In this document: positions 1-18,420 of the stretch, one piece after another
Numbering within the stretch: the first letter of the stretch is position 1
Layout of the letters: every line of letters starts with the position of its first letter
DNA from: a virus
Lineage: Duplodnaviria > Heunggongvirae > Uroviricota > Caudoviricetes
DNA length: 19,614 nucleotides
Strand: one strand, 5' to 3'
IMG/VR virus record: IMGVR_UViG_2609459791_000004
Location: 1-19,614 of that record
Translations under genes and position numbers: made by a program
Notes under the pieces: model-generated
The model's database searches: none
What the model was told of the DNA's origin: nothing
Seen by the model: the letters and a program-made list of their open reading frames with translations, nothing else

Positions 1-1842
1 CTACGCCTCACCGCCGACACGCGTGGACCCATCATAATTTTTAATTTCAGTCGTTGATTTTAATACTTGGCCATCCCAGTAAACTAAAGGCCTGCTGAAC
101 GGCAGAGCGGCTATATATGCCATTGCTAATTGTTCATCTTGTTGATGGTTAAATAGAAAGTCATTGAAAAGATTACCATTGTTAGGAAAATCGTGGTTAA
201 TGTTAATCAATATCCGTCTTTCTGATGGGATACTTGAGATTGTGGAACCCGGTTTTGATGCAAGGGTTTGGAGATCTCCACCAAATGAAAAGGCTTTTAT
301 CGTTTTCATGAGCAATGAAAAATCAATGGCGCTTAAATCATCTCTTTCATAAAGCAGTGATGACATTTGTTGTTCATCCAACTGACAAGTTACCAGATAT
401 TCCATGTAATTCATAACGGCTTTTTTATGATATTTTGGGTTAAATAAGTTAGTATTGTGTAACCGCTCATTATAATTTTTAAGCGGTGGGGTTATTGATC
501 TTTCTATTTGTTCATGTTTTGAGTGTTTTGCCGCATCATAACGTAAACCTCGTACGCCATATTTTCGCATTTCACGAACGTATTGATTTTGCAACATAAT
601 AACCTGGTCACTTTTGGGTGTTGTTTTAGGCATTCCATTTAAACGCTTTTCTTTTAATGCATGGAGGTTTTCCCATTCATCCTTAGAGATGTTATCTTTA
701 CTTGCTTCGAAGTCTTTTGCAGTGAGATGTATATCTTCTGGATGGATTTGTTTACGTTCTTTTGTTACTGGATCTATAGTAAATGGAATCAAAACCTGAC
801 CTTGCCAATAGCCAGGGATACCACTTTCTATATCTTTACTGATCTTCGCTCGTATATCAGCAGAGGGATAATCCAGGTCATTTTTACCACTACCCCCGAT
901 TCCCATAAAGTTAAAGGTATAATCAGGAATGATATCGATACCAAATTTTTTAGCATCTTTAACCAATGCGATAAAATCCTGCAAATCTCCCATTGGATTG
1001 TGGATGGTACAAAGATCTTCGGGTTGATAAGCGTGAAACCAGTAACCTTTTTCTTCTTCGGGAGTTTCTGGTCCGTCGGCACGGAAAGTTGTCACTGGAG
1101 GGATTTGTATATACCCATAATGGCAACGTGCAAATTCAGACATATTTTCTCTGATCTGCTGGTAGGTGGCATTAAAAGCATGAATAATCGCTTCGCCAGG
1201 TTTTTTGGGGGTGATGATTTCACATTGTGATTTCTGAACAGCAGTAAGAGATTTACGCTCAAGTGTTTGCCGTAGATGTTCTGGATTGATTAATATTTTA
1301 AATGTTTCTTGCTGTCCGGAAGGTGACGTCACGTTAATATTATATACATCGGCTGCCAGCTCATAGTCAGGAATGTTAATAGCATATGCAACATATTTAT
1401 CTTTTGGGGAAGGTTTGTCAGATATAATGTGGGTGAAGTGTTCAGCAGGACCATACTGATAAACACCGCTGTTATCACCTCTTTCAATCATTGTATCTCG
1501 TTGATAAACCCATGTTTTTCCTTCTCCTATCCTGTCTGGCGCTGTAATGCTACGCTGTGCTGCTTTATTCAACTCTCGATAAGTTGTATCTGGAGAAAGG
1601 GAAATTTTATAATCGTTTTTTAACAGATCATTAATAACTTTTTCTGCGTGAAAAGTTGATATAATTTCTCTGTCTTTTAATCCTTGAGGGTAAACTCCAC
1701 AAGAATTAATAATATTTGTTATACAGTTTAGATATTCTAATGTATTTAATTTGGAATTTAGATCCCCGTCAGTAATGTTCCATGATAACAATGTGGGGTT
1801 GTCGATAGGTAAATTTCTGGGTCCTGGTTTTATAGAAAACAT
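1..1842 (-). CDS. alpha-amylase family (GH13-like) glycoside hydrolase; C-terminus runs off the window start (partial)
   Basis: 613-aa ORF with no stop before position 1. Translated motifs GIDIIPDYTFNF (region I-like), GVRGLRYDAAKH (GH13 region II, GFRxDAAKH with catalytic Asp) and ININHDFP (region IV NHD). AGGAA Shine-Dalgarno about 7 nt upstream of the ATG at 1842. AT-rich relative to neighbouring phage DNA. Position next to a tRNA-Ile(CAU) recalls E. coli ygaQ/ileY, but this is not verified. Confidence 0.6.
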   Translation of the reverse strand: MFSIKPGPRNLPIDNPTLLSWNITDGDLNSKLNTLEYLNCITNIINSCGVYPQGLKDREIISTFHAEKVINDLLKNDYKISLSPDTTYRELNKAAQRSITAPDRIGEGKTWVYQRDTMIERGDNSGVYQYGPAEHFTHIISDKPSPKDKYVAYAINIPDYELAADVYNINVTSPSGQQETFKILINPEHLRQTLERKSLTAVQKSQCEIITPKKPGEAIIHAFNATYQQIRENMSEFARCHYGYIQIPPVTTFRADGPETPEEEKGYWFHAYQPEDLCTIHNPMGDLQDFIALVKDAKKFGIDIIPDYTFNFMGIGGSGKNDLDYPSADIRAKISKDIESGIPGYWQGQVLIPFTIDPVTKERKQIHPEDIHLTAKDFEASKDNISKDEWENLHALKEKRLNGMPKTTPKSDQVIMLQNQYVREMRKYGVRGLRYDAAKHSKHEQIERSITPPLKNYNERLHNTNLFNPKYHKKAVMNYMEYLVTCQLDEQQMSSLLYERDDLSAIDFSLLMKTIKAFSFGGDLQTLASKPGSTISSIPSERRILININHDFPNNGNLFNDFLFNHQQDEQLAMAYIAALPFSRPLVYWDGQVLKSTTEIKNYDGSTRVGGEA

Positions 1843-2401
1843 AATAAAGTTCCTCTAATGGTAGAGTAATATGATGTATACGGAAACATAAAAATGTTTA
1901 ATTGTTGTGAAAGTAATTGCAAACAGATGTCCTACTTTTATCCAATATTTATATGGAAAAGGATAATGCTTAAATCTGTTTTATTAATTATCGATGTGGT
2001 CTGGAGAGGCAACTGTCAAAAATCGCTCATACGAAACTAATGATTAGCAGAATAAGATCTATGAAAGAATATATTGCTATACGAAGTTTATTTTTATGGA
2101 GTGAAAAGTAACAGATATCATAATGATGCGAAAACTCTTCAGCTAATGTAATAAAGTTATATTATTAGATACAAAATCATTACAAAGTATCATTGAATCG
2201 ATGATAACTATAGATAGTGCTAATTATAAACATTTGCTTGTTGACTGCGAGTATCGACTTTGCGAATGGAGGCGGTGTCGGGTTTTATGTCGCGTGTAAT
2301 CACGACCCAAGGTGAATGGGAACGCATAAAAATCTGTTATTTACATCATATGATCATCATGTTTATTGCGTGGTTTATAAGTATTGTTATTGCACACTCA
2401 A

Positions 2402-2477
2402 GGCCCTTTAGCTCAGTGGTTAGAGCAGGCGACTCATAATCGCTTGGTCGCTGGTTCAAGTCCAGCAAGGGCCACCA
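2402..2477 (+). tRNA. tRNA with CAU anticodon, Ile2 (lysidine) type rather than Met
   Basis: 76-nt cloverleaf read directly: acceptor GGCCCTT/AAGGGCC, D-arm GCTC-AGTGGTTA-GAGC, anticodon loop CTCATAA (anticodon CAT), T-arm GCTGG-TTCAAGT-CCAGC, discriminator A and encoded CCA. Matches my recollection of E. coli ileX/ileY rather than metT or initiator tRNA. The ORF-track frame starting at 2384 reads through it and is an artifact. Confidence 0.88.
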
Positions 2478-3556
2478 AATCATTATTTACGTATCAGGAA
2501 GAGTTAAGGGTACAAGGGGTACTGGCGGACGTTAAAGCCCAGCCCTCCCATATCAGCAAGCCGCTGATGCAACGTATTGAATACTTCAGCAGCCTGGGCA
2601 GGCCAAAGGCTTATTCCCGCTATTTGCGTGAGACGATTAAGCCATGTCTGGAACGACTGGAGCATGTACGCGACAGTCAGCTATCCACTTCTTTTCGCTT
2701 TATGGCAAGCCATGAAGGGCTGGACGGCCTGCTGATCCTGCCTGAAATGAGTCAGGATCAGGTGAAACGCCTGTCTACTCTTGTCGCTGCGCATATGAGC
2801 ATGTGTCTTGATGCCGCTTGTGGTGATTTGTACGCCACCGATGATGTTAAGCCAGAAGAAATCCGCAAGACATGGGAAAAGGTGGCAGCAGAAACCCTGC
2901 GACTGGATGTCATACCGCCTGCGTTTGAGCAACTCCGCCGGAAAAGAAACCGCCGTAAACCCGTGCCCTATGAACTCATTCCGGGTTCGCTGGCGCGTAT
3001 GTTGTGCGCCGACTGGTGGTACCGGAAATTATGGAAGATGCGTTGCGAATGGCGGGAAGAGCAGTTGCGTGCTGTTTGCCTGGTCAGCAAAAAAGCATCT
3101 CCCTATGTCAGCTATGAAGCCGTGATGCATAAACGTGAGCAGCGCCGTAAGTCGCTGGAGTTTTTCCGTTCTCATGAACTGGTGAACGAAGACGGCGACA
3201 CGCTGGACATGGAGGATGTGGTAAACGCCAGCAGCAGCAACCCTGCGCATCGCCGCAATGAGATGATGGCCTGTGTTAAAGGTCTGGAGCTTATCGCGGA
3301 AATGCGCGGTGACTGCGCCGTTTTCTACACCATCACCTGTCCGTCACGTTTCCATTCCACGCTAAATAACGGCAGGCCCAACCCGACCTGGACAAATACG
3401 ACGGTAAGACAAAGCAGTGATTATCTGGTCGGCATGTTTGCTGCATTTCGTAAGGCGATGCACAAAGCCGGATTGCGCTGGTATGGCGTGCGGGTGACCG
3501 AAGTGCTGGAATGGCGGTATAAAGCGATTCAGAGAAGCGGGGCCAACGATGAGTGA
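2478..3556 (+). pseudogene. phage rolling-circle replication protein (P2/186 gene A-like) fragment, abutting the tRNA and running into the tape-measure start
   Basis: Open frame continues from the tRNA to 3556 with no credible start or RBS; first in-frame ATG is at 2567. Contains [14 protein letters not shown], which resembles Rep motif 1 of the phage GPA family from memory, but no HUH or active-site Tyr region follows. Its stop overlaps the tape-measure ATG, so the 3' part may derive from another gene (for example E'). Identity is from recalled motifs only. Confidence 0.35.
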
Positions 3557-5901
3557 TAACAACCTGCGTCTGCAGGTCATTCTTAATGCGGTTGACAAGC
3601 TCACCCGCCCATTTCGATCTGCGCAGGCCAGTTCAAGAGAACTGGCTGCTGCTGTCAAAAAATCCCGCGATGCAATAAAGCAGCTTGATCAGGCCGGGAG
3701 CAGTCTGGACAGCTTCCGAAAGCTGCAGGCAGAAAATCAGAAATTAGGCGACAGGCTGAACTATGCCCGCCAGCGTGCAAATTTGCTCAGTCAGGAACTG
3801 GGAGCGATGGGGCCGCCTTCGCAACGTCAGGTTGTTGCTCTGGGCCGTCAACGGCTGGCTGTTCAGCGCCTGGAAGAACGCCAGAAAAAGCTGCAGCAGC
3901 AGACGGCGCTTGTGCGTGCTGAACTGTACCGGGCGGGAATTTCTGCGAAAGACGATGCGGGAGCAACTGCCCGTTTAGCCCGTGAAACATCACGTTATAA
4001 CCAGGAACTTTCGAAACAGGAGGCGCGGCTGAAGCGACTGGGGGAAGCTCAGCGCAGGATGAATGCAGCGCGTGCCAGTTATGCCCGTTCGCTGGAGGTG
4101 CGTGATCGTATTGCAGGTGCCGGAGCCACCACCACGGCTGCAGGGCTGGCAATGGGCGCACCAGTGATGGCGGCAGTAAAAAGCTATACCAGCATGGAAG
4201 ATGCCATGAAAGGTGTGGCAAAGCAGGTCAATGGTCTGCGTGACGATAATGGCAACCGCACTGCACGTTTTTATGAAATGCAGGATGCCATCAAGGCTGC
4301 CAGCGAACAGTTGCCGATGGAAAACGGTGCGGTGGATTTCGCTGCACTGGTTGAAGGTGGTGCGCGCATGAACGTCGCAAACCCTGACGACAGTTGGGAA
4401 GATCAGAAACGTGACCTGCTGGCCTTCGCCAGTACGGCAGCAAAGGCGGCAACAGCCTTTGAGCTGCCAGCGGATGAACTGTCAGAAAGTCTGGGGAAAA
4501 TCGCCCAGCTCTACAAAATCCCCACCCGCAATATTGAACAGCTCGGTGATGCGCTGAACTATCTGGATGATAACGCCATGTCGAAAGGGGCAGACATCAT
4601 TGATGTGATGCAACGTCTGGGCGGTGTGGCTGACCGTCTGGATTATCGTAAAGCGGCGGCGCTGGGTTCCACCTTCCTGACACTGGGCGCTGCGCCAGAG
4701 GTTGCAGCCAGTGCAGCAAACGCGATGGTGCGTGAATTGTCCATTGCCACCATGCAAAGCAAGAGTTTCTTTGAAGGGATGAATCTGCTGAAACTCAATC
4801 CTGAAGTGATTGAAAAGCAGATGACGAAGGATGCGATGGGAACCATCCAGCGCGTGCTGGAGAAGGTAAACGCGCTGCCGCAGGACAAGCGCCTGTCTGC
4901 CATGACTATGTTGTTTGGTAAAGAGTTTGGCGATGACGCGGCGAAACTGGCAAACAACCTGCCGGAACTGCAGCGTCAGTTAAAACTGACAGCGGGCAAT
5001 GATGCGCTCGGCTCCATGCAGAAAGAATCCGACATTAACAAGGATTCACTTTCTGCGCAGTGGTTGCTGGTCAAAACCGGAGCGCAGAACACCTTCAGCA
5101 GCCTGGGCGAAACGCTGCGCCAGTGCAGCGTTCGAACCGCTTAAGCCCGTGTTCCAGTGGATTGGCGACAAAGTGCAGGCGCTGTGGGGCTGGTTTACTG
5201 ATCTGCTGACGCCCGTTAAGTCGACCTCTGCCGAACTGCAGAGCGCAGCGGCAATGGGGCGGCGATTCGGGGAGGCACTGGCGGAAGGGCTGAATATGGT
5301 CATGCATCCGCTGGACTCCCTGAAATCCGGCGTTTCCTGGTTGCTGGAGAAGCTCGGCATTGTCAGTAAAGAGGCCGCAAAGGCAAAACTGCCGGAAAGC
5401 GTGACGCGTCAGCAACCTGCGACGGTGAATGCAGACGGTAAAGTGATGATGCCATCGGGTGGTTTTCCATCATGGGGATATGGCTTTGCGGGGATGTATG
5501 ACAGCGGCGGGGATATCCCGCGCGGGCAGTTTGGCATCGTCGGTGAAAACGGGCCGGAAATTGTTAACGGCCCGGCAAATGTGACCAGCCGGAGAAATAC
5601 AGCTGCACTGGCTGCCGTTGTTGCCGGAATGATGGGCGTTGCTGCCGCGCCAGCAGAGCTTCCACCGTTGCACCCCTTGGCACTTCCCGCGAAAGGTGGA
5701 GAAGCAATTGTGAGTCGCGCAGCCACTGTGCCGCTCGTTCAACGGATTGAGGCACCGACGCAGATCATCATTCAGACGCAGCCAGGACAAAGTGCGCAGG
5801 ATATTGCGCGGGAGGTGGCACGCCAGCTTGATGAACGTGAACGCAGGCTGAAGGCAAAAGCCAGGAGTAACTACAGCGATCAGGGGGGATACGACGCATG
5901 A
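3549..5901 (+). pseudogene. P2-like tail tape measure protein (gpT), interrupted by a +1 frameshift near 5100-5145
   Basis: Two overlapping ORFs, 3549-5144 (531 aa) and frame +1 ending at 5901, together give about 784 aa, close to P2 gpT size. N-terminus [22 protein letters not shown], coiled-coil Q/R/A/L-rich composition and a Gly/Ala-rich C-terminus are typical of tape measure proteins. Frame 1 stops at 5142-5144 while the downstream frame carries ...AAFEPLKPVFQWIGDKV. Confidence 0.75.
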
Positions 5902-6383
5902 TGATGGTGCTGGGATTGTACGTGTTTATGCTGCGCACCGTTCCGTATCAGGAACTGCAGTATCAACGCAGCTGGCGACATGCGGCAAACAGTCGGGTAA
6001 ACCGACGTCCGTCCACGCAGTTTCTGGGACCGGAAAACGACATGCTGACGCTTTCCGGTGTTCTTATGCCGGAGATAACAGGCGGCAGGCTGTCGTTGCT
6101 GGCACTGGAGCAGATGGCAGAACAGGGGAAAGCGTGGCCCCTGATTGAAGGCAGTGGCACGATTTACGGTATGTATGTGATTGAGGGACTGAATCAGACT
6201 AAAACGGAGTTTTTCCGCGATGGTATGCCGCGCCGGATTGAGTTTACCCTGTCGCTCAAACGGGTGGATGAATCCCTGTCCGATATGTTCGGTGATCTCA
6301 GTGCGCAGCTGAATAATTTGCAGGATACGGCAACGTCTGCCTTAAGCGATATCAGTAAAACGGTGGGAGGGCTGCTGTCGTGA
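5898..6383 (+). CDS. P2-like tail protein U
   Basis: 161-aa ORF whose ATG overlaps the tape-measure stop (ATGA). Size and position between T and D match the P2 T-U-D order. Confidence 0.75.
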   Translation: MMMVLGLYVFMLRTVPYQELQYQRSWRHAANSRVNRRPSTQFLGPENDMLTLSGVLMPEITGGRLSLLALEQMAEQGKAWPLIEGSGTIYGMYVIEGLNQTKTEFFRDGMPRRIEFTLSLKRVDESLSDMFGDLSAQLNNLQDTATSALSDISKTVGGLLS

Positions 6384-7480
6384 ATTTCAGCTCTGAACTG
6401 CTTAACAAAGGCAACAAAACTCCGGCATTCAGCATCAGTATTGAAGGCAGGGATATCACTACTGTGCTGGACAACCGCCTGATGGGGCTTACGCTGACGG
6501 ATAACCGGGGCTTTGAAGCGGACCAGCTTGATCTGGAGCTGGACGACGCCGATGGAAAAATCGTGCTGCCGCGCCGTGGTGCGGTCATTACGCTGGCGCT
6601 GGGCTGGAAGGGGCAGCCGCTTTTCCCGAAAGGGGCATTCACGGTGGACGAGATTGAACACACTGGCGCACCGGACCGCCTGACTATCCGGGCGCGAAGT
6701 GCTGATTTTCGTGAAACACTGAATACCCGCCGTGAAAAATCGTGGCATAAGACCACCGTCGGGGAAGTGGTGAAGGAAATAGCCGCGCGGCACAAGCTGA
6801 AGATGGCACTGGGTAAAGACCTGTCGGATAAGCCAGTGGAGCATATAGACCAGACTAATGAGAGTGACGGCAGTTTTCTGATGCGGCTGGCGCGACAGTA
6901 CGGTGCCATCGCGTCGGTGAAAAATGGCAATCTGTTATTCATCCGGCAGGGGCAGGGCAAAAGCGCCACTGGTAAACCTCTGCCAGTGATCACTATCACA
7001 CGCAAGGACGGCGACAGTCACCGATTTACCCTGGCAGATCGCGGAGCTTACACGGGCGTAATTGCCAGCTGGTTGCATACCCGCGAACCCGCGAAGAAAG
7101 AAAGCACCGCGGTGAAGCGTAAGCGCAGGACTAAGAAGCAGAAGAAAGAGCCGGAAACGAAGCAGGGCGATTATCTGGTGGGTACGGATGAAAACGTGCT
7201 GGTACTTAATCGCACCTATGCTAATCGGAGTAACGCCGAACGGGCAGCGAAAATGCAGTGGGAACGCCTGCAACGCGGCGTTGCGTCATTCTCGCTACAA
7301 CTGGCGGAAGGGCGGGCAGATCTCTACACGGAAATGCCAGTGAAAGTCAGTGGCTTTAAACAGCCGATAGATGATGCGGAATGGACCATTACGACTCTGA
7401 CGCATACCGTCAGCCCCGATAACGGTTTTACAACCAGTATTGAACTCGAAGTGAAGATTAATGATCTTGAAATGGAATAA
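6380..7480 (+). CDS. P2-like late tail protein D
   Basis: 366-aa ORF with GTG start overlapping the U stop. Position directly upstream of ogr matches the P2 order, and size is close to P2 gpD. Confidence 0.78.
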   Translation: MNFSSELLNKGNKTPAFSISIEGRDITTVLDNRLMGLTLTDNRGFEADQLDLELDDADGKIVLPRRGAVITLALGWKGQPLFPKGAFTVDEIEHTGAPDRLTIRARSADFRETLNTRREKSWHKTTVGEVVKEIAARHKLKMALGKDLSDKPVEHIDQTNESDGSFLMRLARQYGAIASVKNGNLLFIRQGQGKSATGKPLPVITITRKDGDSHRFTLADRGAYTGVIASWLHTREPAKKESTAVKRKRRTKKQKKEPETKQGDYLVGTDENVLVLNRTYANRSNAERAAKMQWERLQRGVASFSLQLAEGRADLYTEMPVKVSGFKQPIDDAEWTITTLTHTVSPDNGFTTSIELEVKINDLEME

Positions 7481-7548
7481 AGTGTTCTCAATATTGATAT
7501 TTTTTGTATCATTACAATGATTCTGATAGCAAAGGTAGGGATCTGGAT

Positions 7549-7767
7549 ATGATGAATTGTCCAAAGTGTGGTCATGCGGCACACACAAGGAGCAGTTTTC
7601 AAGTAACTGAAAGCACCAAAGAGCGTTACTGCCAGTGCCAAAATATTAACTGCGGGAGCACTTTTGTTACTCATGAAACAGTGGTCCGGTTTATTGTGAC
7701 ACCCGCACTGATTGCTACTGCTCCTCCACATCCATTGCCAGGTGGTCAGGGGCATATGAATTTTTGA
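7549..7767 (+). CDS. ogr: Ogr/Delta-family zinc-finger late transcription activator
   Basis: 72-aa product MMNCPKCGHAAHTRSSFQVTESTKERYCQCQNINCGSTF with the CxxC-N22-CxxxxC zinc finger of P2 Ogr. GGTAGGG Shine-Dalgarno about 8 nt upstream of the ATG at 7549. The ORF-track start at 7504 (TTG) is probably too long. Confidence 0.85.
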   Translation: MMNCPKCGHAAHTRSSFQVTESTKERYCQCQNINCGSTFVTHETVVRFIVTPALIATAPPHPLPGGQGHMNF

Positions 7768-7774
7768 GAAAGAG

Positions 7775-7797
7775 AACCTGCTACGGCAGGTTTTTAT
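7775..7797 (+). terminator. rho-independent terminator downstream of ogr
   Basis: Hairpin CCTGC-tacg-GCAGG followed by TTTTTATT, starting 8 nt after the ogr stop. Confidence 0.7.
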
Positions 7798-7907
7798 TCA
7801 TCTGGGATCTCACCCGTTTCAAGAAAATGTATAAAGCCAGGCTCATCTATGATGATTGTGCCTTTCATCCTGGCTGCCGATACTTTTGATGGGCCTGCAT
7901 TGTAACC

Positions 7908-8285
7908 TCAACAGAGCATCTGAAGGCTTTGGGTTATAGAGGTTCTTACCGTTAATCCTTGTTCATTCGCCTTATCAACCAATCTTTCTTTATCTGCTTT
8001 CTTAAATCCGGTGAAACACACATCGAATGTATTTTTTTTCGGACCAGACTGCTTAGTGAGATGTGAGTAGCTTTCGGGGAGGAATGACGCGCATTCCTGA
8101 ATGGCTTGTTCTGGTGAATCGTACTGTTTAAGAATGCGGTCTTTTCGGAAGGTTTTTATTCGATCGGTGTTCTTACAAATGCCCTGTATATGATTTTCGC
8201 TATAACTGATGCTCTGTATAGAGTGAACAGCGATACGACCATTTGCATTGATGTAAACAAAGTGAAGTTCTTCCATGTGAAACAT
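7908..8285 (-). CDS. hypothetical protein with WYL-like N-terminal region and a truncated BRCT-like C-terminal segment
   Basis: 125-aa ORF in AT-rich DNA. N-terminal FVYINANGRIAVHSIQSIS...RIKTFRKDRI resembles the WYL-domain RxFRxDRI signature. C-terminal FDVCFTGFKKADKERLVDKANEQGLTV looks like the start of a BRCT fold but stops early. No clear Shine-Dalgarno. Confidence 0.35.
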   Translation of the reverse strand: MFHMEELHFVYINANGRIAVHSIQSISYSENHIQGICKNTDRIKTFRKDRILKQYDSPEQAIQECASFLPESYSHLTKQSGPKKNTFDVCFTGFKKADKERLVDKANEQGLTVRTSITQSLQMLC

Positions 8286-8363
8286 CTTTGCATGATTTCA
8301 AGATGGTGACAGGCAAGATGGACGCAAAAGTCTGTCGCCATTTTGCCGCCACTACCAAAGAAA

Positions 8364-8398
8364 AAGGGGCTACGCTTTCACGTAACCCCTTGATTTAT
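8364..8398. terminator. bidirectional hairpin flanked by A/T runs
   Basis: GGGGCTACG-ctttca-CGTAACCCC (9-bp stem, one mismatch) with AAAAA on the 5' side and TTGATTTATTT on the 3' side. Confidence 0.4.
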
Positions 8399-8421
8399 TT
8401 GGTGGGCTGGCGGAGTCTGAA
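8399..8421 (-). other. candidate attR core of the P4-like element: degenerate copy of the 3' end of the tmRNA gene ssrA
   Basis: Plus strand TTGGTGGGCTGGCGGAGTCTGAA resembles the reverse complement of the ssrA 3' end as I recall it (TGGTGGAGCTGGCGGGAGTTGAA) with two 1-nt gaps and one mismatch. It lies just outside the crr-like iterons, at the end of the element opposite an IntA-like integrase. From memory only, no alignment run. Confidence 0.3.
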
Positions 8422-8583
8422 TAACTCACGTAAATATCTGTTAATAGGTGGCTTTAACCAATTCAACTTTCTTCGGTATACCTAAGCGTATACCAATGGC
8501 GATTTGTTGCAGCGCTTCCTGTGATTAAGAGAACCTGTTTTTGGATAAATCACATCTAGAAAAAAACTTTTTTTTAGAAAAAC

Positions 8584-8675
8584 TGTTCACACTGTTCACT
8601 GTGCATTTTTATTTATAAAATTCATGACATTACGGGGTGAATGGTTGGTGAACAGTGAACACTTTACTGTTCATT
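8584..8675. repeat. iteron cluster resembling P4 crr (cis replication region), with adjacent A/T tract
   Basis: TGTTCAC at 8584-8590 and 8594-8600; GGTGAACA at 8647-8654; GTGAACA at 8655-8661; degenerate copies at 8636-8642 and 8668-8675. Both orientations present. Preceded by AAAAAAACTTTTTTTT at 8561-8580. TGTTCACC is, from memory, the P4 type I iteron bound by alpha. Confidence 0.6.
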
Positions 8676-8722
8676 TTACTGGCTCACAGAGGATTACCAT
8701 ACGAATCCTTAAGGACTTGCGG

Positions 8723-9523
8723 TCATTTTCGCCATTCTCTTGTTCCACTAATGTTAGACATCACATCGTCGAAGTTGAATTTTGGATCTGTATCTGGATT
8801 AAATTGGCCATTTTTACTTTCATAAATGAAATTTTGACAATCACAATTGCTGTCACTTTCGCCGCAGTCCATGCATTCAGCATTACAGTAATCTATCATC
8901 CTATCAATGGCATCCCAGGGCTCATAATCGTAGTCGAAATGTCCATAACCACTACTGCCATAAATTCTTCCATTTATGAAGTCGTCAATGTCACTAATAT
9001 TTCTTAACTGGCAGTTGAAAATATTTGATATAGGTCTAAGGACTACCCTCGCATAATCAAATTTGTATAAGGGCATTTCAAAGAAAACCTTACCATTATC
9101 AGCTTTAAGACTGTGAAAAGATAAATCTCCATATTTTTCTATAAGTTCCTTATATCTTTTTTTATCCAGCTCAACATGCTTGAATGAGTTGTTAATCGCA
9201 TCCAAAAGAGAAAACTTATTGCTAATGTGCTTACTCCCATCCACTTCATATCGTTTATCGAAGCTTTTAATAAAATCAGTTCTGGTTATTTCAGTTTTCT
9301 TTTTTGCAATAAATATCATGTAATCAACAACGTGAGCCAAGATTGCGTTAAATGAAAATACATGATGAAGCTTCAGTGTATTGTTGTTTAGTATTGTGAA
9401 AAACTCTTCAGATGCTGGGGTTAAAACATTATCCAAATAAGAAAGGAGATAGCTTGCATCTTTTTCATCGGAGCTGCCTGTGTATAGTTCTATTGCGCTT
9501 CCTTGATGGTTGAGATTTATCAT
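8723..9523 (-). CDS. hypothetical Cys-rich protein, cargo ORF between the crr-like iterons and alpha
   Basis: 266-aa ORF in an AT-rich block inside the GC-rich satellite backbone. C-terminal cluster CNAECMDCGESDSNCDCQ suggests possible metal binding. No family recognised. Confidence 0.55.
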   Translation of the reverse strand: MINLNHQGSAIELYTGSSDEKDASYLLSYLDNVLTPASEEFFTILNNNTLKLHHVFSFNAILAHVVDYMIFIAKKKTEITRTDFIKSFDKRYEVDGSKHISNKFSLLDAINNSFKHVELDKKRYKELIEKYGDLSFHSLKADNGKVFFEMPLYKFDYARVVLRPISNIFNCQLRNISDIDDFINGRIYGSSGYGHFDYDYEPWDAIDRMIDYCNAECMDCGESDSNCDCQNFIYESKNGQFNPDTDPKFNFDDVMSNISGTREWRK

Positions 9524-9689
9524 TAATAACCGCCAGTAAGTTCTATTAATCTGGGAAAATTAACCGTGATAAATGAAGTATAGCGACTTCCTTCATTGCT
9601 ATGCAATCATACGATTGTTTCATTACATTGAATCAATTCTCACTCAGAACTGTATCTTAAATTGTGCATAATGTCTGGACTGAGAGTGC

Positions 9690-9715
9690 AAAAAAAAGAC
9701 CGGCGATTGCCGGTC
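9690..9715 (-). terminator. rho-independent terminator downstream of alpha
   Basis: On the minus strand, hairpin GACCGGC-aatc-GCCGGTC followed by T8, about 10 nt after the alpha stop. Confidence 0.7.
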
Positions 9716-9723
9716 AGGTCAGG

Positions 9724-12057
9724 TTATTTCGCTAGGGGGTCATCACATTTCGGCAGCCAGTCGGCGTTGCTTTCCTCTCTTAACGCGAGATTGGTTTGTA
9801 TGCCCTGATTTTTTCGGCGCTTCTCATAACTTAGCCCGTACTCTTTCAGCATGGCTGGCAGCCCCTTACCGAACATGGTGAGGCTGAGAGTATTCCTGTA
9901 GCCGTGGGCTTCCATATACGCCAGATAGGCATGATACAAATACAGGCGCGGCTGACGCGGAATGATGTTGGCATTGCCAATATACATGCCCTCAGGCTCC
10001 GGCAGTGCCTCCAGATAGCCACAAAAATCAAAGGCCGGATCGGCGTCGCGTTTGATGCTGAGTGCCTCGTCGGAGTTCTGCTGTGACTGGAGCAGGGCAC
10101 GCGCTGTCATCGGGTTGCTGAACTTCTGCATAAGCTGGCGCACAATCACGGCCAGCTCGCGCGCAATTTTATCCCTGAGCTGCGGGTCGCGTTCCTCCGG
10201 GGCAATCTGCTCAGGGAAGTGGATGATTACCCGGCGACGGGAAACACCGCCGCTGCGGTCGGTAAAGCGCATCGGGTTATTGTTCACGGCCAGAATCACC
10301 GCAGGAATATGGGTGGAGTACGCATCCTTGTATTTCGGGTCAACGGAGACCGCATCCCCGCCGGTGATGGCCTTGAGTCCTGCCCCGTCACCGCTCCATT
10401 TCTCCTGGTCAGGCAGACGGATTAGCGAGAAGCCAATCAGCGCAGCACGTTCACGCGGCGACTCCAGCGTTTCGATAGTGGCCGATGTGGCGTTATCTTC
10501 CCCGGCAAGCATGGTCGCAATTTCGGCCAGAATACTTTTTCCGCTGCCACCGGGTCCGGTCACCTCAAGAAAGAGCTGCCAGTCGTAACGGTTCGCCAGC
10601 ACCATAAACAGCGCGGCCAGAATCACGTCGCGTTTTTCCGGTTTGCCACCGGCGGCGCGGTCGAGCCAGCGCCAGAACTCCGGGGCGTGGGTTTCCAGCG
10701 TTTCCCCCTCTACCGGTGGGGTAAAATCGACATCACAGAGTGTGCGCAGCCAGTGCGATTTATGGTGTGGGCTGAAAGTACCCGTGGCGGTATCGAGTAC
10801 TCCGTTACGAAAGCCAATCAGACGCCGTGCCGGGGCATCCTGCTGCGGAATAATCAGTTTCAGGGTCTCCACCACTGAGGCAATTTTCCCCGACGAGAAC
10901 GGTGCGCGCAGACGCTGGAACAACCCGGCCACGTCGCGGGCAAAATCCGACGGCGGAATGATTTTCCATATCCCGGCCTCATAGCGGGACAGGAGCTGGC
11001 CGTTTGCATCCACGGCCAGCGCTTCGCCGTAATGCTCATGCACCCGCATCGCCTTTTCACTGGTGCTCATGGCGGTAAATTCTGCCTCGCTCATGGTAGC
11101 GAAAGGGCTGTCAGCCGGTGGCCGGATGGCGTCATAAATCGCTTTTCGTGTCGCCTCTTCGCCTTTCTGAACAAACGCATCATTCCAGTCACCGAATACC
11201 GGCGGCAGGGCAACAACGCCTTCACAGGCTTCTGCGGCCGCGGCGGCTTTACTCTGACCATCGCCGTTCAGGTCACGGTCGGCGGCGAGGACAATCTGAC
11301 AGGCCGGGTGTTTCTGGCGGACAAGGCTCGCCAGAGAAAGGAGGTTCACGGACGACAGTGCCACCATGACGGTTTCACCGGTCAGGTGATGCACGGTGAG
11401 CGCGGTCGCATAGCCCTCCGCTATCCACAGGCGTTTTCCGGCCTGTTTCTTCCCTTCGATGACATGACATGCTCCTTTAACCTGACCGCCCTTCAGGGTG
11501 CGTTTGAGACCGTCAGAATTGATGAGCTGAAGGTTTACCAGCGCGCCGGTATCGTCATACAGCGGGACAACCACATCCCCGGCGCGGAACGTCACGCCGC
11601 CGGTTTTATGCATGACCGTAAGTACCGGACATTCCCGGTCGGGGAAGCCCTTGCGGGTCAGGTAGGCGTTGCCGCTGGCAGGTTGGGTTTTCTCCATGAG
11701 CCTGACGGTCAGTGCGGCCGCCGCTTTGCGGTCAGCCTCCGTTTCAGCCTCTGCGGCCGCAATCACTTCGGGGGCAACCGGTGGCAGGTTGCCGGTCACG
11801 GCGTCCACCCTCCCGGCAGCCTCTGATGCGGTCACGCCAAACACTTTCTCGACCAGCTTAAGACCGTCACCCGCACCGCACTGGTTACAGAACCACGTCC
11901 CGCGTCCCTCTTTATCGTCAAAGCGGAAACGGTCAGAGCCGCCGCACATCGGGCAGGCCTGATGCCGGTTTTTCATGACCTTCACACCAAGCGCCGGAAG
12001 AATGCGCGGCCAGTGGCCGCACGCCTGTTTTACCGTCTCTGTTACGTTCATTTTCAT
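9724..12057 (-). CDS. P4 alpha-type bifunctional primase-helicase
   Basis: 777 aa, the same length as P4 alpha. N-terminal zinc-binding CPMCGGSD...FCNQC, primase motif EGYATA, Walker A GPGGSGKS. GAGGGAG Shine-Dalgarno upstream of the ATG at 12057. Confidence 0.9.
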   Translation of the reverse strand: MKMNVTETVKQACGHWPRILPALGVKVMKNRHQACPMCGGSDRFRFDDKEGRGTWFCNQCGAGDGLKLVEKVFGVTASEAAGRVDAVTGNLPPVAPEVIAAAEAETEADRKAAAALTVRLMEKTQPASGNAYLTRKGFPDRECPVLTVMHKTGGVTFRAGDVVVPLYDDTGALVNLQLINSDGLKRTLKGGQVKGACHVIEGKKQAGKRLWIAEGYATALTVHHLTGETVMVALSSVNLLSLASLVRQKHPACQIVLAADRDLNGDGQSKAAAAAEACEGVVALPPVFGDWNDAFVQKGEEATRKAIYDAIRPPADSPFATMSEAEFTAMSTSEKAMRVHEHYGEALAVDANGQLLSRYEAGIWKIIPPSDFARDVAGLFQRLRAPFSSGKIASVVETLKLIIPQQDAPARRLIGFRNGVLDTATGTFSPHHKSHWLRTLCDVDFTPPVEGETLETHAPEFWRWLDRAAGGKPEKRDVILAALFMVLANRYDWQLFLEVTGPGGSGKSILAEIATMLAGEDNATSATIETLESPRERAALIGFSLIRLPDQEKWSGDGAGLKAITGGDAVSVDPKYKDAYSTHIPAVILAVNNNPMRFTDRSGGVSRRRVIIHFPEQIAPEERDPQLRDKIARELAVIVRQLMQKFSNPMTARALLQSQQNSDEALSIKRDADPAFDFCGYLEALPEPEGMYIGNANIIPRQPRLYLYHAYLAYMEAHGYRNTLSLTMFGKGLPAMLKEYGLSYEKRRKNQGIQTNLALREESNADWLPKCDDPLAK

Positions 12058-12071
12058 CGTTATTTTCTCCC

Positions 12072-12392
12072 TCAGTGCATGACAGGCGATGTGATATGAC
12101 GGGCACAGAGCTCATCCATCACGGCCAGCCCGAGGAAGGACAGCGACGGGGCAGCTTTCAGTGGTCCGGCTTCCATTAAATCTTCCAGCAGTGCACAGGC
12201 AATCTGGCGGCCTTTTTCCTCGCCGTGCTGGCGCAGGTAGAAGCCCTCCAGCTCGGCGGCAATGGCGCTTTCCAGCGCGTCAAGGGTGAGGTGTGGGTAG
12301 CGGCACTGGCGTTCGCACAGGGTCAGCCATGCACAGGCCACGGCGCGCCGATATAGCGCGGCGCGTAATACGGGCGGTAATGGCTTTTTCAT
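12072..12392 (-). CDS. P4-like left-operon protein (orf upstream of alpha)
   Basis: 106-aa ORF immediately upstream of alpha; its start overlaps the stop of the preceding small ORF by 4 nt. GC-rich backbone composition. Confidence 0.5.
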
Positions 12393-12616
12393 ACGTTGCC
12401 CTCCCCGGTCAGCCAGCGCTGATTGCAGCGCTCTACCACGCCGTCGAGCTGGGCGGTCATAAGGTAAATCACGGAGGTGAGTTGCGACTGCTGTGCAGGG
12501 TCACGACGAACGGTCGCGCAGTCCTGCACCTGCATCAGCTCGTTGACGAGCTGGCCGACGTTGCGCATGTGCTCCAGACATTCGAGGTCACGGGCGCTAA
12601 TCGTGGTGTGTCTCAT
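12389..12616 (-). CDS. small P4-like left-operon protein (possibly Eps or Icd-like)
   Basis: 75-aa ORF with 4-nt overlaps to both neighbouring ORFs (12613-12616 and 12389-12392). Identity is guessed from position only. Confidence 0.4.
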
Positions 12617-12807
12617 GCACGCACCTCCGCAACCGGCAGGCGGCCAGCGAACGAGAGGACGTAATCGCGAACAAGGGAACGACGTGCAGCGTGTTCATCA
12701 CCGGCAACGGTGCGGAGCATACAGATACGGGGTTTACGGTCTGCACGACGAACGGCGGCAAACACAAAAACAAACTGCGGGTGTGACGGGGTGAGGATAG
12801 TAGCCAT
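12613..12807 (-). CDS. small P4-like left-operon protein (64 aa)
   Basis: Internal ATG of the long ORF-track frame, with GGAGG 8 nt upstream; stop overlaps the next ORF. The rest of the 185-aa frame is low-complexity and covers the leader region. Confidence 0.35.
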
Positions 12808-12829
12808 GATGGCAGCCTCCATTGAGTAG

Positions 12830-13015
12830 CGGTTACTGCTACCACCGGAAACGCCAATTTCACTGGTGGCAGCCCGAACGGGGTTGGCGTAACCGGCCTC
12901 AATGGATACCGGCCAGCCCGAAGGCTGCCCCGCCCGGACTACCATTATCTTGCTGGAACCATGGTGTATAAAAAGACACCACAGCCCGGAAAATGGGTGT
13001 GCCTGAGCTACGACG
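12830..13015 (-). ncRNA. candidate P4-type immunity leader (CI RNA and seq-like repeats)
   Basis: Noncoding stretch between the leader terminator and the first small ORF. Repeated AGCCCGAA (12871-12878 and 12915-12922) and GGCGTT(T)CC elements, plus hairpin CAGCC-cgaa-GGCTG. Position matches the P4 cI region. Exact RNA ends not determinable here. Confidence 0.25.
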
Positions 13016-13038
13016 AAAAAAAAGACGCACGGCGCGTC
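13016..13038 (-). terminator. leader terminator downstream of the PLE-like promoter
   Basis: On the minus strand, hairpin GACGC-gccgt-GCGTC followed by T8, about 60-80 nt downstream of the predicted start. Confidence 0.4.
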
Positions 13039-13101
13039 TGGTGTCGCCATTGAGTTTCGCGGAACGCCAATTCCGGCTGTCGATTTTGCGACAGCGGGAA
13101 A

Positions 13102-13131
13102 ACTATACCTGGAAACGGCGAAAAGAAGCAA
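13102..13131 (-). promoter_or_regulatory. sigma70-like promoter, candidate P4 PLE
   Basis: On the minus strand, TTGCTT-N18-TATAGT. A 7-bp stem-loop (GCTGTCG/CGACAGC) lies at the predicted transcript 5' end. Confidence 0.4.
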
Positions 13132-13166
13132 GCCAGAAAAAGGGTCTGTTTGCTGAACGGTCATCA

Positions 13167-13433
13167 TCATGCGTCATAGCCCCGGTTGCGTTCGGCAATA
13201 CGATCCGCCATCCATGCTGTGATTTCAGACTGCGCCCACGCCACGTTTTTTCCGCCCAGGCTGATTTGTTTCGGGAAAGCCTCGCGGCTGATGAGGTCGT
13301 AAATGGTTGACCGGGACAGGCCGCACAGATGCATCACTTCAGGCAGGCGGATAAAGCGCTCCTGAACGGCATCAGAAACCGGCATCAGTGGTGCGGCAGG
13401 GGCAGAAGACGGGGAAGAAAAAGCGGTGTGCAT
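13167..13433 (-). CDS. AlpA/Vis-family DNA-binding regulator or excisionase
   Basis: 88 aa with [32 protein letters not shown], typical of AlpA/Vis HTH proteins. GAGGT Shine-Dalgarno upstream. Confidence 0.8.
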
Positions 13434-13699
13434 CGGGCTACCTCATAATGTCCATACAGTGCCGGTCATGTCCGTCCGGCTTCGGGTAGCTCCTTATTAT
13501 GTCTATATTTTTCCTCAGGTCATGTGAGATTTTCGGGGAAACAAACATTGACTTTTCGCTCTGGCAAACAAAGACAAACGCTGGCAAAGATATGCAAATC
13601 ACTGCATTACAATGCAGCAATTTCTATTGCTTTTAGTTATACATTTTTCATTTTTAATCGAAATAAAATCTAAGTGGTTTGGACAGAGCAAAACAGGAG

Positions 13700-13804
13700 G
13701 GTGAACAGTGGTGAACAGAGGGTGAACAGTCAGACCCTCAACTGTTCACCCTTTATCTTACTGTATTACTTATATTTTTATTTAAGGTGAACAGTGGTGA
13801 ATAG
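13700..13804. repeat. iteron cluster resembling the P4 replication origin
   Basis: GGTGAACA at 13700-13707, 13710-13717, 13721-13728 and 13786-13793; inverted TGTTCACC at 13743-13750; degenerate GGTGAATA at 13797-13804. Includes an 11-bp inverted repeat GGGTGAACAGT-N10-ACTGTTCACCC. Flanked by A/T-rich DNA. Confidence 0.6.
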
Positions 13805-13880
13805 TTATAAGTAAAAAAACAAACGGTGAGTAAGGTTTTGCTGAGACCTTTCTCTGGCCAGCCGGGTTTTAAGTGTTGTT

Positions 13881-13898
13881 TGTGCCAGAACTGCCACA
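13881..13898 (+). promoter_or_regulatory. TGT-N12-ACA element, candidate Delta/Ogr activator site of the sid promoter
   Basis: TGTgccagaactgccACA centred about 81 nt upstream of the sid ATG. P2/P4 late promoters are known to carry a TGT-N12-ACA dyad around -55. Confidence 0.45.
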
Positions 13899-13970
13899 AC
13901 TGCAATGAATCGAGATGTTGTGTGATGAAGGGCAGAATCATTTCAGGTTGAATAAACGGAGAGCCTGAAC

Positions 13971-14714
13971 ATGAAACCCGAAACAGTCATTACCGCCCTG
14001 CAAGACGTTGCCGCCAAGCAGTACGCAGAGAACAGCCAGCACGTCACCGACAAGCTGAGCGTATTTACTGCGGCAAGAGACACCCACGCGGCCAGCATGC
14101 AGGTACTGAAAGAGATTGATACGTCCATTCAACGCTGTAAGCAGGAGCGGCAGACCGCTCTCGATGAGAGCGCAGAAGCGGAGCAGGACTGGCGCAGCCG
14201 CTTTCGCACCCTGCGCGGCAGTCTTACCCCTGAAATGAAAGCTGAGCACAGCAGGCGTATCGCCAGCCGCGAGCTGGCCGACGAGTTCACCAGCCTGATT
14301 GCCGAGCTGGAGGCCGACCGGACGCGCGCCATGCTGACTGCCTGCTCCACCGGCAATAAATACCTTTCAGCGCATGAAGATGCCTTTACCGCTTATGCCG
14401 GTGCGGAATGGGCTCAGGCTGTCAATGCGGTTCCTGTCACCCTCATCCGCGCTTTCCTGCTGCGCATTCGTGCCCTCGAAATGAAGGGAGAAAGCGCCCC
14501 GCAGTCCGTGGCCACTGGCGAGCTGCGCGATGCGCTGAGTCGTCAGGGCAGCCTGTATCACTTCGATATGACGCAGGAGCCGGTGTTGTCCGTGACGGGC
14601 ATGCACCGGCCGCAGATTACAGGCGTGGATACGGAGCTGTTACGCAGCCCTGCGAAGAGAATGATGCTCGCCAGAAAGCTGGCTGAAAATGGCGAGACAG
14701 AAGCGGAGGGGTAA
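13971..14714 (+). CDS. sid: P4 Sid-like capsid size determination protein
   Basis: 247 aa, alpha-helical charged composition, first gene of the sid-delta-psu block. GGAGAG Shine-Dalgarno. Confidence 0.75.
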   Translation: MKPETVITALQDVAAKQYAENSQHVTDKLSVFTAARDTHAASMQVLKEIDTSIQRCKQERQTALDESAEAEQDWRSRFRTLRGSLTPEMKAEHSRRIASRELADEFTSLIAELEADRTRAMLTACSTGNKYLSAHEDAFTAYAGAEWAQAVNAVPVTLIRAFLLRIRALEMKGESAPQSVATGELRDALSRQGSLYHFDMTQEPVLSVTGMHRPQITGVDTELLRSPAKRMMLARKLAENGETEAEG

Positions 14715-14716
14715 GC

Positions 14717-14935
14717 ATGTTTCACTGCCCGTTCTGCAAAACCAGCGCGCATTCCCGCACCAGTCGCTATCTGTCCGATAACGTCAAACAGCGCTATCAC
14801 CAGTGCATGAACATCGAGTGCTCGGCCACGTTCCGCACGCTTGAATCCATCGACGGGGTTATTCGTTCACCGGTAACAGAGCCGGTCATCCCTGTACCCG
14901 CACCGGCGGCCACCGTTAACCGTGCCGGTGCGTAA
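14717..14935 (+). CDS. Delta (Ogr-family zinc-finger late activator), single-domain form
   Basis: 72 aa MFHCPFCKTSAHSRTSRYLSDNVKQRYHQCMNIECSATF with the same Cys spacing as Ogr. Starts 3 nt after the sid stop. Confidence 0.8.
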   Translation: MFHCPFCKTSAHSRTSRYLSDNVKQRYHQCMNIECSATFRTLESIDGVIRSPVTEPVIPVPAPAATVNRAGA

Positions 14936-14963
14936 GCACGGCCAGTCATCAGGAGAAACATAC

Positions 14964-15527
14964 GTGACCACACTGACGCTACAGAAAGCCTTTGAGACCT
15001 GTCAGGCAAACAAATCCGCCTGGCTGCAACGCAGGGAAGAACTGACGCAGGCCGAACAGGCATACCGCGAACAGCTTGCCGGCAGCGGGCACAGCGGCCG
15101 GAGCCTGCAAACGCTACGTGAAATTATTGACGTGAAAAAATGGGAAATTAATCAGGCTGCCGGTCGCTATATCCGCTCGCATGAGGAGGTGCAGCGCATC
15201 AGCATCCGCGACCGATTAAATGATTTTATGCAGGCGCACGGCGCGGAGCTGGCCGCCGCCCTCGCCCCGGAGCTGATGAATTATCCCGGGCAACACCCCG
15301 CCATTCAGCGCTGCGCCATGCAGCACTCACTCGACTGTCTGCGTGAGGCGCTACAGGTCTGGCTGGCCGTTGGTGAAAAAATTAATTATTCGGCGCAGGA
15401 CAATGACATTTTAACGGCCATCGGATTCAGGCCTGACGCGGCTTCGCGCGATGATAGCCGTGAAAAATTCACACCTGCACAGAACCTGAATTACACCCGC
15501 CGTCGTGCAGAACTGGCTGCGCAGTAG
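14964..15527 (+). CDS. psu: P4 Psu-like polarity suppression protein
   Basis: GTG at 14964 preceded by AGGAG with 9-nt spacing, giving about 187 aa, close to P4 Psu. Last gene before the cos-like region. Confidence 0.75.
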   Translation: MTTLTLQKAFETCQANKSAWLQRREELTQAEQAYREQLAGSGHSGRSLQTLREIIDVKKWEINQAAGRYIRSHEEVQRISIRDRLNDFMQAHGAELAAALAPELMNYPGQHPAIQRCAMQHSLDCLREALQVWLAVGEKINYSAQDNDILTAIGFRPDAASRDDSREKFTPAQNLNYTRRRAELAAQ

Positions 15528-15573
15528 TCCTTTCAAAAATCCCCAAAAATCCCGCCATTTTTACGTAAAAAAG

Positions 15574-15600
15574 CCATGCATGCATAAGGTGCATGGTTTT
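15574..15600 (+). terminator. rho-independent terminator after psu
   Basis: Hairpin CCATGCA-tgcataagg-TGCATGG followed by TTTT. Confidence 0.6.
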
Positions 15601-15693
15601 GCATGCGCTTTACCGACACTGTATTCCCCGCCAGCGCCAGCACTGGCGCGCCCTGAGGCCGGTCATGCGCCTGCATTAAAAGCGCCCCCTTAA

Positions 15694-15718
15694 GCGGGCA
15701 GGCGGGGCGGGGAGAGCA
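15694..15718. other. candidate cos site
   Basis: GCGGGCAGGCGGGGCGGGGAGAGCA resembles the P2/P4 19-nt cohesive end as I recall it (GGCGAGGCGGGGAAAGCAC). Sits between psu and the cargo hotspot, where P4 cos lies. Confidence 0.3.
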
Positions 15719-15896
15719 TTGCGCGCCATAGGCTCTTATCATTTATTTGATATATCTTTTTAGAAACTGCGAAACAGACTAAAAAATCATGATCATCCCT
15801 TTGATTTGTAGGTAGAATTCGATCAATAGTATGAGTTGATTGGATGCTGATACAAAAGCTATTTAACTATACATTTGATGTCATGGAGGGGTTATA

Positions 15897-16370
15897 TTGT
15901 TTAAGCGGAAAAATAAAAATTCAGTTCCTTCATTTACACAAGATTTTCATTATCTTACTGCCCTCATTCAGCATTTAGGTGCTCATGAGAAATGGAATAG
16001 CAGAACACCAAGGAATATAGCCGACAGTCTTGGGATGGATATAAATGAAGTCGAAAGAGTTTTGCGGTCATACCCGGCATTCTTCAGGCGGTCGGGAAAC
16101 CTTAGTACTCAAGGAGAACCGCTTTTCATGATTCATTTGCGATATGCGAGAAGAAGACGAAATGCCGATGATGGTTCACGAGAGTCCCCACCTGTTGAAC
16201 CAGCTGAACTAGGTATGATGCTAGATCTTGTTACTAAAATGATTGCAGTGGAAGAGCAAGGTAGGCGGTTGTCAGTTGATGAAAGAAATAACAGTCTTAA
16301 ATTGTGGTTGGCGATATTGCTTGCAGCTATTTCAACATTAACCACCTTGGCTGTAGCATATATAAAATGA
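15897..16370 (+). CDS. small C-terminally membrane-anchored protein with a possible HTH-like segment; first gene of the hotspot operon
   Basis: 157 aa with TTG start 7 nt after GGAGG. C-terminal hydrophobic helix LKLWLAILLAAISTLTTLAVAYI. Segment RNIADSLGMDINEVERVLRS resembles a helix-turn-helix. AT-rich. Confidence 0.55.
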   Translation: MFKRKNKNSVPSFTQDFHYLTALIQHLGAHEKWNSRTPRNIADSLGMDINEVERVLRSYPAFFRRSGNLSTQGEPLFMIHLRYARRRRNADDGSRESPPVEPAELGMMLDLVTKMIAVEEQGRRLSVDERNNSLKLWLAILLAAISTLTTLAVAYIK

Positions 16371-16377
16371 GGTTCAT

Positions 16378-18384: not shown

Positions 18385-18389
18385 GAACT

Positions 18390-18417
18390 ATGCCCGTCAG
18401 CATGACGGGCATGTTTT
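18390..18417. terminator. hairpin terminator between the convergent hotspot operon and integrase
   Basis: ATGCCCGTC-agcat-GACGGGCAT (9-bp perfect stem) followed by GTTTT, between stops at 18384 and 18421. Confidence 0.6.
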
Positions 18418-18420
18418 AGC

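Follow-up and report, generated by a model that had tools for sequence, protein, structure and literature searches.

Positions 8400-8421 very probably form the distal attachment site (attR in the ssrA orientation) of a P4-like satellite, which an IntA-type tyrosine integrase inserted into the 3' end of ssrA, the gene for tmRNA. The window, that is, the whole stretch of 19,614 nt that was analysed, corresponds to the region of E. coli between glaH/ygaQ and ssrA. An attR at ssrA is already known in kind, and this one is a textbook case of a described class, with the same sequence as the K-12 site. That integrases of the P4 family insert at the 3' end of ssrA, leaving behind a pseudo-copy without T357, is established biology. 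For annotation, the value of the site is that the limits of the satellite are fixed and that it is set apart from the neighbouring P2-like remnant.

The ssrA-like core and the limits of the satellite

The plus strand of the window reads TGGTGGGCTGGCGGAGTCTGAA (22 nt) at 8400-8421, and the last 23 nt of E. coli ssrA, as reverse complement, read TGGTGGAGCTGGCGGGAGTTGAA (the ssrA 3' end in plus-strand form, TGGTGGAGCTGGCGGGAGTTGAACCC). When the two were aligned, TGGTGG-GCTGGCGG-AGTCTGAA for the window against TGGTGGAGCTGGCGGGAGT-TGAA for ssrA, 21 positions matched and three single-base indels remained. The counterpart of ssrA T357 is absent from the core, between 8405 and 8406; as U, T357 forms the G-U wobble pair of the tmRNA acceptor stem. 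The likeness lies on the minus strand, which is the orientation of the integrase and also of ssrA in related genomes. At an edit distance of 4 or less from the ssrA 23-mer, 8400-8421 was the sole site in the window, and none of 100 shuffled windows contained a match that close. The first-pass annotation had drawn a boundary at 8364-8421 and remarked on a 23-bp resemblance to the tmRNA 3' terminus. The resemblance was confirmed as an imperfect minus-strand copy of 22 nt, confined within that interval to 8400-8421, while the part at 8364-8391 is a terminator hairpin outside the ssrA copy. The only other match to the ssrA 23-mer in the window, a weak one with 5 substitutions, is the 3' end of ileY. 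The distal boundary thus carries a partial ssrA copy in the orientation of ssrA, as in elements of the IntA/CP4-57 type, with the signature CGCCAGC-CCACCA (T357 missing) that is listed for distal copies in Table 1 of PMC10107115. The features of the junction and of the satellite are as follows.

8400-8421, minus strand: probable attR core, a psaA-type pseudo-ssrA 3' end, minus-strand reading TTCAGACTCCGCCAGC-CCACCA
8403-8406: interval with the recombination joint; left side common to the MB19 empty site, right side common to the MB20 satellite
8422-8560: P' arm of the attachment region, with two arm-type repeats, GGTATACC at 8475-8482 and CGTATACC at 8487-8494 (+76 and +88 from the core start at 8400)
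8582-8674: crr-like iterons, ACTGTTCAC and its inverse GTGAACAGT, between att and the primase gene, as in P4
8723-9523, minus strand: 266-aa ORF of unknown function, inside the satellite between crr and alpha
9724-12057, minus strand: P4 alpha-type primase-helicase (Zn_Ribbon_Prim, Toprim_3, D5_N, Pox_D5)
12862-12949, minus strand: C4/CI-type antisense immunity RNA (Rfam RF01695, 82.9 bits)
13167-13433, minus strand: AlpA/Vis-like excisionase candidate (PF05930, E = 3e-20)
13971-15527, plus strand: sid-like, delta and psu late genes (Sid, 29% identity, E = 4e-29; Ogr_Delta; Psu, E = 1e-88)
15897-18384, plus strand: cargo between psu/cos and int (157-aa ORF and 668-aa OLD-family ATPase-TOPRIM protein)
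18421-19614, minus strand: P4-family tyrosine integrase of IntA type (Arm-DNA-bind_3, Phage_int_M and Phage_integrase in Pfam)

The limits of the satellite were set by comparison with related strains. Strain MB19 has the empty site: window 1-8413 aligns with it at 99.4% (BLAST end points) with a single gap, an A missing in the window after TGGTGG, and ssrA is annotated there as an intact gene on the minus strand from the base equivalent to 8400. The break against this unoccupied site thus falls exactly at the att core. In strain MB20, window 8403-19614 aligns at 99.973% without any gap (BLAST) behind a different left flank (ypjA), the satellite segment sitting between the ypjA flank and ssrA. 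From the homology with MB19 (empty), which runs to 8413 across the single gap, and that with MB20 (satellite), which starts at 8403, the joint was placed at 8403-8406. Strain CAVP773 carries the P2-like flank and the identical 22-mer as in the window, followed by a CP4-57-like island. Based on these alignments, the satellite would extend from about 8403-8406 to approximately 184 nt past the end of the window, or roughly 11.4 kb; the extent proposed in the first-pass annotation stands in outline, and its length of about 11.2 kb is corrected. That annotation had also put the P2-like remnant and a WYL-like ORF outside the satellite, in agreement with the presence of both in MB19 and CAVP773, which lack it. 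The crr-like iterons that it had noted just inside the boundary are real, lying about 160 nt inside the junction. Among complete E. coli genomes, the P2-like flank directly adjoins ssrA in 195, and no complete E. coli genome in RefSeq carries the exact pairing of the P2-like flank with the P4-like satellite.

Integrase, attachment region and gene content

The start codon of the integrase coincides with the end of the window, in agreement with the CDS coordinates of MB20, and arm-binding, central and catalytic domains were all detected, so that a P4-family integrase with an arm-binding domain occupies the ssrA-proximal end. Its sequence shares 63% identity with K-12 IntA, against 37% with P4 Int, and the resemblance to CP4-57 IntA pointed out earlier is upheld; the att core is the same as the CP4-57 distal att at 22 of 22 positions. 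In MB20, the ssrA 3' end is found 184 nt past the integrase start. The identical 397-aa integrase occurs in ten public contexts, and in nine of them the tmRNA gene ends 184 nt upstream of it, supporting the proposal that the satellite is integrated at ssrA just beyond the window end. Judging from these near-identical copies, ssrA, which lies outside the window, probably adjoins the integrase in the window's own genome as well. The tenth context (L023, CP017061.1) keeps the last 89 nt of ssrA, and carries ParB/RepB-like and rve-fragment genes upstream instead of smpB, suggesting that ssrA was interrupted further in by another insertion or rearrangement.

For comparison with P4, attP was reconstructed by joining the integrase-proximal arm from MB20 to the core and P' arm of the window. 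Counted from the core, repeats of the CGTATACC type are located at -161, -147, -133, -121 and +76, +88; in P4 attP, the arm repeats are annotated with starts at -163, -136, -124 and +73, +85 relative to the P4 core. The spacing is nearly the same, the order (int, arm repeats, core, arm repeats, crr, alpha) is shared, and in both elements the core starts at the CCA end of the target RNA gene. By this architecture the integrase presumably binds the CGTATACC repeats. In contrast, the P4 core, TGGTGCCGAAGGCCGGACTC, copies the 3' end of tRNA-Leu and not that of ssrA, and the P4 arm repeats are of the ATGCCCCC type; the differences in arm motif and core are as expected for an integrase with a different target. 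With its ssrA-like core, the window element is not P4 proper, which has a leuX-specific attP.

In gene content, the element has the hallmarks of a P4-like satellite, namely alpha together with crr/ori-type iterons, the Sid, Delta and Psu genes, and a CI-type immunity RNA. Its alpha shows 80% nucleotide identity to P4 alpha, and the nucleotide homology with P4 reaches P4 base 11623, the right cos end of P4, at window position 15699. The AlpA-like gene stands at the position equivalent to P4 ORF88, annotated as excisionase, and by this analogy its product probably acts as an excisionase; the integrase and AlpA-like ORFs are both intact. Beside the C4/CI RNA in the immunity region, a match to the Hfq-binding RNA isrK was detected at 13018-13095 on the minus strand (Rfam, 74.5 bits). 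The 266-aa ORF at 8723-9523 gave no match in Pfam or PADLOC; it is conserved with the satellite in many contigs and always found with it, whereas P4 has nothing at this position. Where P4 carries gop-beta-cII, the window element has the OLD-family gene pair, and this cargo site is likely to be an anti-phage hotspot. The 668-aa protein contains AAA_15, AAA_21 and OLD-like TOPRIM domains (PADLOC Old, E = 2e-20), and for the 157-aa ORF no family match was obtained.

Known elements at ssrA were compared with the satellite. In E. coli K-12, the distal att of CP4-57 ("psaA") lacks the T357 base as does 8400-8421; in the window orientation this end reads ...ATCATGAT TGGTGGGCTGGCGGAGTCTGAA TTGGTTGT..., beside the 14-nt pseudogene psaA. 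The sequences diverge immediately after the core, with TAACTCAC in the window and TTGGTTGT in K-12. CP4-57 is alike in target gene, orientation (attL in ssrA), the possession of an AlpA-family protein and the related IntA. However, the island CP4-57 measures 22 kb, lacks the replication and late genes of P4 and has different arm-type repeats; the window element, of 11.4 kb, carries alpha, sid, delta, psu and a CI-type RNA as a P4-like satellite. According to the table in PMC10107115 (from Williams 2003), the same CGCCAGC-CCACCA signature is present in the distal att of CP4So (Shewanella oneidensis) and of other P4-integrase elements at ssrA; CP4So differs from the window element in host and cargo. 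P2-type prophages at ssrA such as Fels-2 and SopE-phi, in the same table (PMC10107115), leave an unaltered ssrA 3' copy, CGCCAGCTCCACCA; these are kin of the neighbouring remnant in the window, not of the satellite.

The missing T357 and the origin of the junction

A search for a perfect direct repeat, suggested earlier as a check of the boundary, would have misled. No long one exists: in K-12 the two junctions share a perfect stretch of 7 bp (TTGGTGG), and the window flank and the satellite's proximal arm share one of 11 bp (TTATTTGGTGG), both inside an imperfect repeat of 22/23 nt. The exact crossover point in this imperfect repeat is not derivable from sequence alone. In all genomes read with the core (and with the proximal junction where sequenced), the ssrA side keeps T357 and the distal side is without it, and the T357-less core was found behind at least three unrelated left flanks, i.e., the ypjA side, the P2-like end and a P-arm remnant. 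On the simplest reading, the T357-less GCTGGCGGAGTCTGAA would travel on the P' side of the element, which would put the effective resolution of integration within CCACCA, 3' of T357. If T357 is lost when CP4-57 excises, as reported, resolution must on the other hand take place 5' of it. Both observations would fit if T357 lay inside the strand-exchange (overlap) region, from which heteroduplex products could segregate either way. Such a location is consistent with the finding in IMG/VR of one left flank both with and without the T357 base (L107 and L129 versus L127).

The following course of events is proposed. Before the insertion, the minus-strand ssrA gene would have lain directly against the P2-like remnant end, the hairpin at 8364-8391 acting as the ssrA terminator. 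The satellite attP would then have recombined with the ssrA 3' end, splitting the site in two. One product, beyond the window end, would be the integrase-proximal arm joined to intact ssrA; the other, inside the window, would consist of the former downstream flank with CCACCA, followed by the imperfect ssrA-like core of the satellite (GCTGGCGGAGTCTGAA) and the P' arm. The zone of strand exchange would include or border the T357 position, and excision could return a T357-less ssrA, as reported for CP4-57.

Onodera et al. 2022 (PMC10107115), with reference to Wang 2009, Zeng 2016 and Williams 2003, give CGCCAGC-CCACCA as the mutation caused in ssrA when CP4-57, CP4So, VPI-phi and several other P4-integrase elements excise. 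Excision of CP4So deletes the wobble U of tmRNA (Zeng et al., PMC5148205), and tmRNA without U357 is inactive, ArfA taking over ribosome rescue (Onodera et al. 2022, PMC10107115). Because the core is identical to that of CP4-57 and the T357 equivalent is absent, excision of the satellite could also leave a U357-less ssrA. By analogy, and only tentatively, excision upon infection by a P2-type helper or upon AlpA-like induction might turn trans-translation off and ArfA-dependent ribosome rescue on. If this is true, mobilisation of the satellite would be coupled to the ribosome-rescue state of the host, so far shown only for cryptic islands.

The junction might instead predate the satellite. An older island of the IntA type, like the CP4-57-like island of CAVP773, could have made the combination of flank and T357-less core. 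Once that island had excised, the satellite could have integrated in its place at an ssrA lacking T357, with the satellite's own attP supplying the base again. In this case, too, 8400-8421 would be the satellite's attR, but the missing base would be inherited and not brought by the satellite. In favour of this, CAVP773 shares the flank and the 22-mer exactly but carries another island after them; a T357-less ssrA, which would be such an intermediate, reportedly results from the excision of CP4-57 (PMC10107115); and an otherwise intact tmRNA gene without T357 exists in strain ECDA1023 (L066). We consider this course of events unlikely, since the occurrence of the T357-less core behind at least three unrelated left flanks is explained more simply by a deletion that travels on the element's side. 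Furthermore, a T357-less ssrA beside the P2-like flank, a possible excision scar, gave no 100% match among the 12 best-matching places listed for the 195 complete E. coli genomes with this flank adjoining ssrA; these 12 showed spans of 251 bases, the wild-type spacing, where the T357-less query has 250.

Genomes with the same satellite differ in how many TGG units stand at the distal junction (TGGTGGGC, TGGGC and TGGC, for example L001 11565, L004 and L011), indicating that some junctions changed since integration or were joined in a different register. These variants recall the CGCCAGC----CCA variants tabulated from Williams 2003 in PMC10107115. Such variation in other genomes, the imperfection of the repeat and the state of the neighbouring P2-like prophage, a remnant unable to act as helper, might be taken to mean that the site is a decayed, non-functional scar and that the satellite is fixed in the chromosome, its excision lost. 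This is rather improbable, because the core has the same sequence as the K-12 attR, a site that functions in the AlpA-induced excision of CP4-57 (PMC10107115), the integrase and AlpA-like ORFs are intact, and an element 99.97% identical lies behind different flanks in different strains, pointing to recent movement. A chance likeness to ssrA, with the true boundary elsewhere, has nothing in its favour beyond the imperfection of the match and is negligible in probability, given the result with the shuffled windows, the homology breakpoints of two independent comparators inside the 22-mer, and the presence of the 22-mer at equivalent junctions in 46 species-representative genomes and 43 viral contigs.

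The preferred reading thus remains an attR left by insertion of the satellite itself into ssrA. The exact core plus P' arm pattern of the satellite, as would be contained in an excised attP or circular form, gave 0 matches in IMG/VR. IMG/VR contigs of about 12 kb were considered as circular forms and rejected: without terminal overlaps and with ends in ssrA, they are trimmed proviruses. In several genomes (L004-L007 and L013), the left flank at the distal side of the satellite is a remnant of a near-identical integrase-proximal arm (...CACCGGACATATCCGGATCATTATT), for which reason the junction looks like attP; an amidase/histidinol-dehydrogenase cluster then follows.

The left flank and the spread of the core

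The features on the left side of the junction are listed below.

2567-7767: P2-like prophage remnant (GPA, tape measure, tail gene gpU, gpD, ogr)
7794-8276, minus strand: BRCT-like pseudogene with an internal stop
8364-8391, minus strand: terminator-like hairpin, a 12-pair stem followed by a T run

The end of the P2-like remnant abuts ssrA in strains without the satellite; in these, as read in MB19, 8 nt lie between ssrA and the downstream hairpin. The hairpin belongs to the end of the neighbouring P2-like prophage, and in the window it has been separated from ssrA by the satellite insertion. The same hairpin and flank were also found beside the core in other species and viral contigs. Within the remnant, an internal deletion at 2567-3556 (plus strand) fuses a fragment of the GPA replication endonuclease to a C-terminal piece of GpE (Pfam GPA at 64-312 and GpE at 306-327 of the fusion ORF), and the P2-like tape-measure gene that follows (3549-5901) is frameshifted. 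The ORF at 7794-8276, initially labelled WYL-like, loses this label: no WYL domain was matched in Pfam, the ORF is a pseudogene in the window, and the intact CAVP773 orthologue gave a sub-threshold BRCT match and a weak match to PADLOC PDC-S48.

The tRNA gene at 2402-2477 (plus strand) is tRNA-Met (CAT) according to ARAGORN, and ileY, tRNA-Ile(CAU), in the RefSeq annotation of K-12 and MB19. Integration of the P2-like remnant at ileY was considered and rejected, as no convincing direct repeat of the ileY 3' end was found within 2300-8500. In CAVP773, the P2-like prophage forms part of the ssrA array; the prophage integrase is distal, and the distal att, GGGAGTTGAA, is of the ssrA type and lies near ypjA. 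The region is a tandem array of elements, each of which used ssrA.

The species-representative genomes with the exact 22-mer include members of Citrobacter, Enterobacter, Klebsiella, Kosakonia, Leclercia, Serratia, Morganella, Providencia, Xenorhabdus and Erwinia. Among 48 core matches in IMG/VR, the T357 equivalent is absent in 43 and kept in 5, the latter, in contigs L107, L111, L129, L149 and L151, having the distal core TGGTGGAGCTGGCGGAGTCTGAA. Seven IMG/VR proviruses of 10-12.5 kb are bounded by the core and ssrA. The left flanks of the core include the ypjA side, P2-like ends with the same hairpin, and arms of other IntA-type elements; such diversity is expected if elements inserted at ssrA repeatedly and in tandem. 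Between pinH and ypjB in K-12 and CAVP773 (L003 28461-28482, minus strand; L014 2771-2792, plus strand) there is a third and more degenerate psaA-like copy (TGGTGGGCTGGCAGTGACTGAA), possibly a scar left by an older island that had integrated at ssrA and contained ypjA. In E. coli ECDA1023 (CP178308.1; L066 5531-5891), the otherwise intact tmRNA gene ends in ...CCAGC-CCACCA, with T357 missing, and a remnant of an IntA-type arm is present downstream; this T357-less ssrA looks like a natural excision scar, its tmRNA presumably being inactive.
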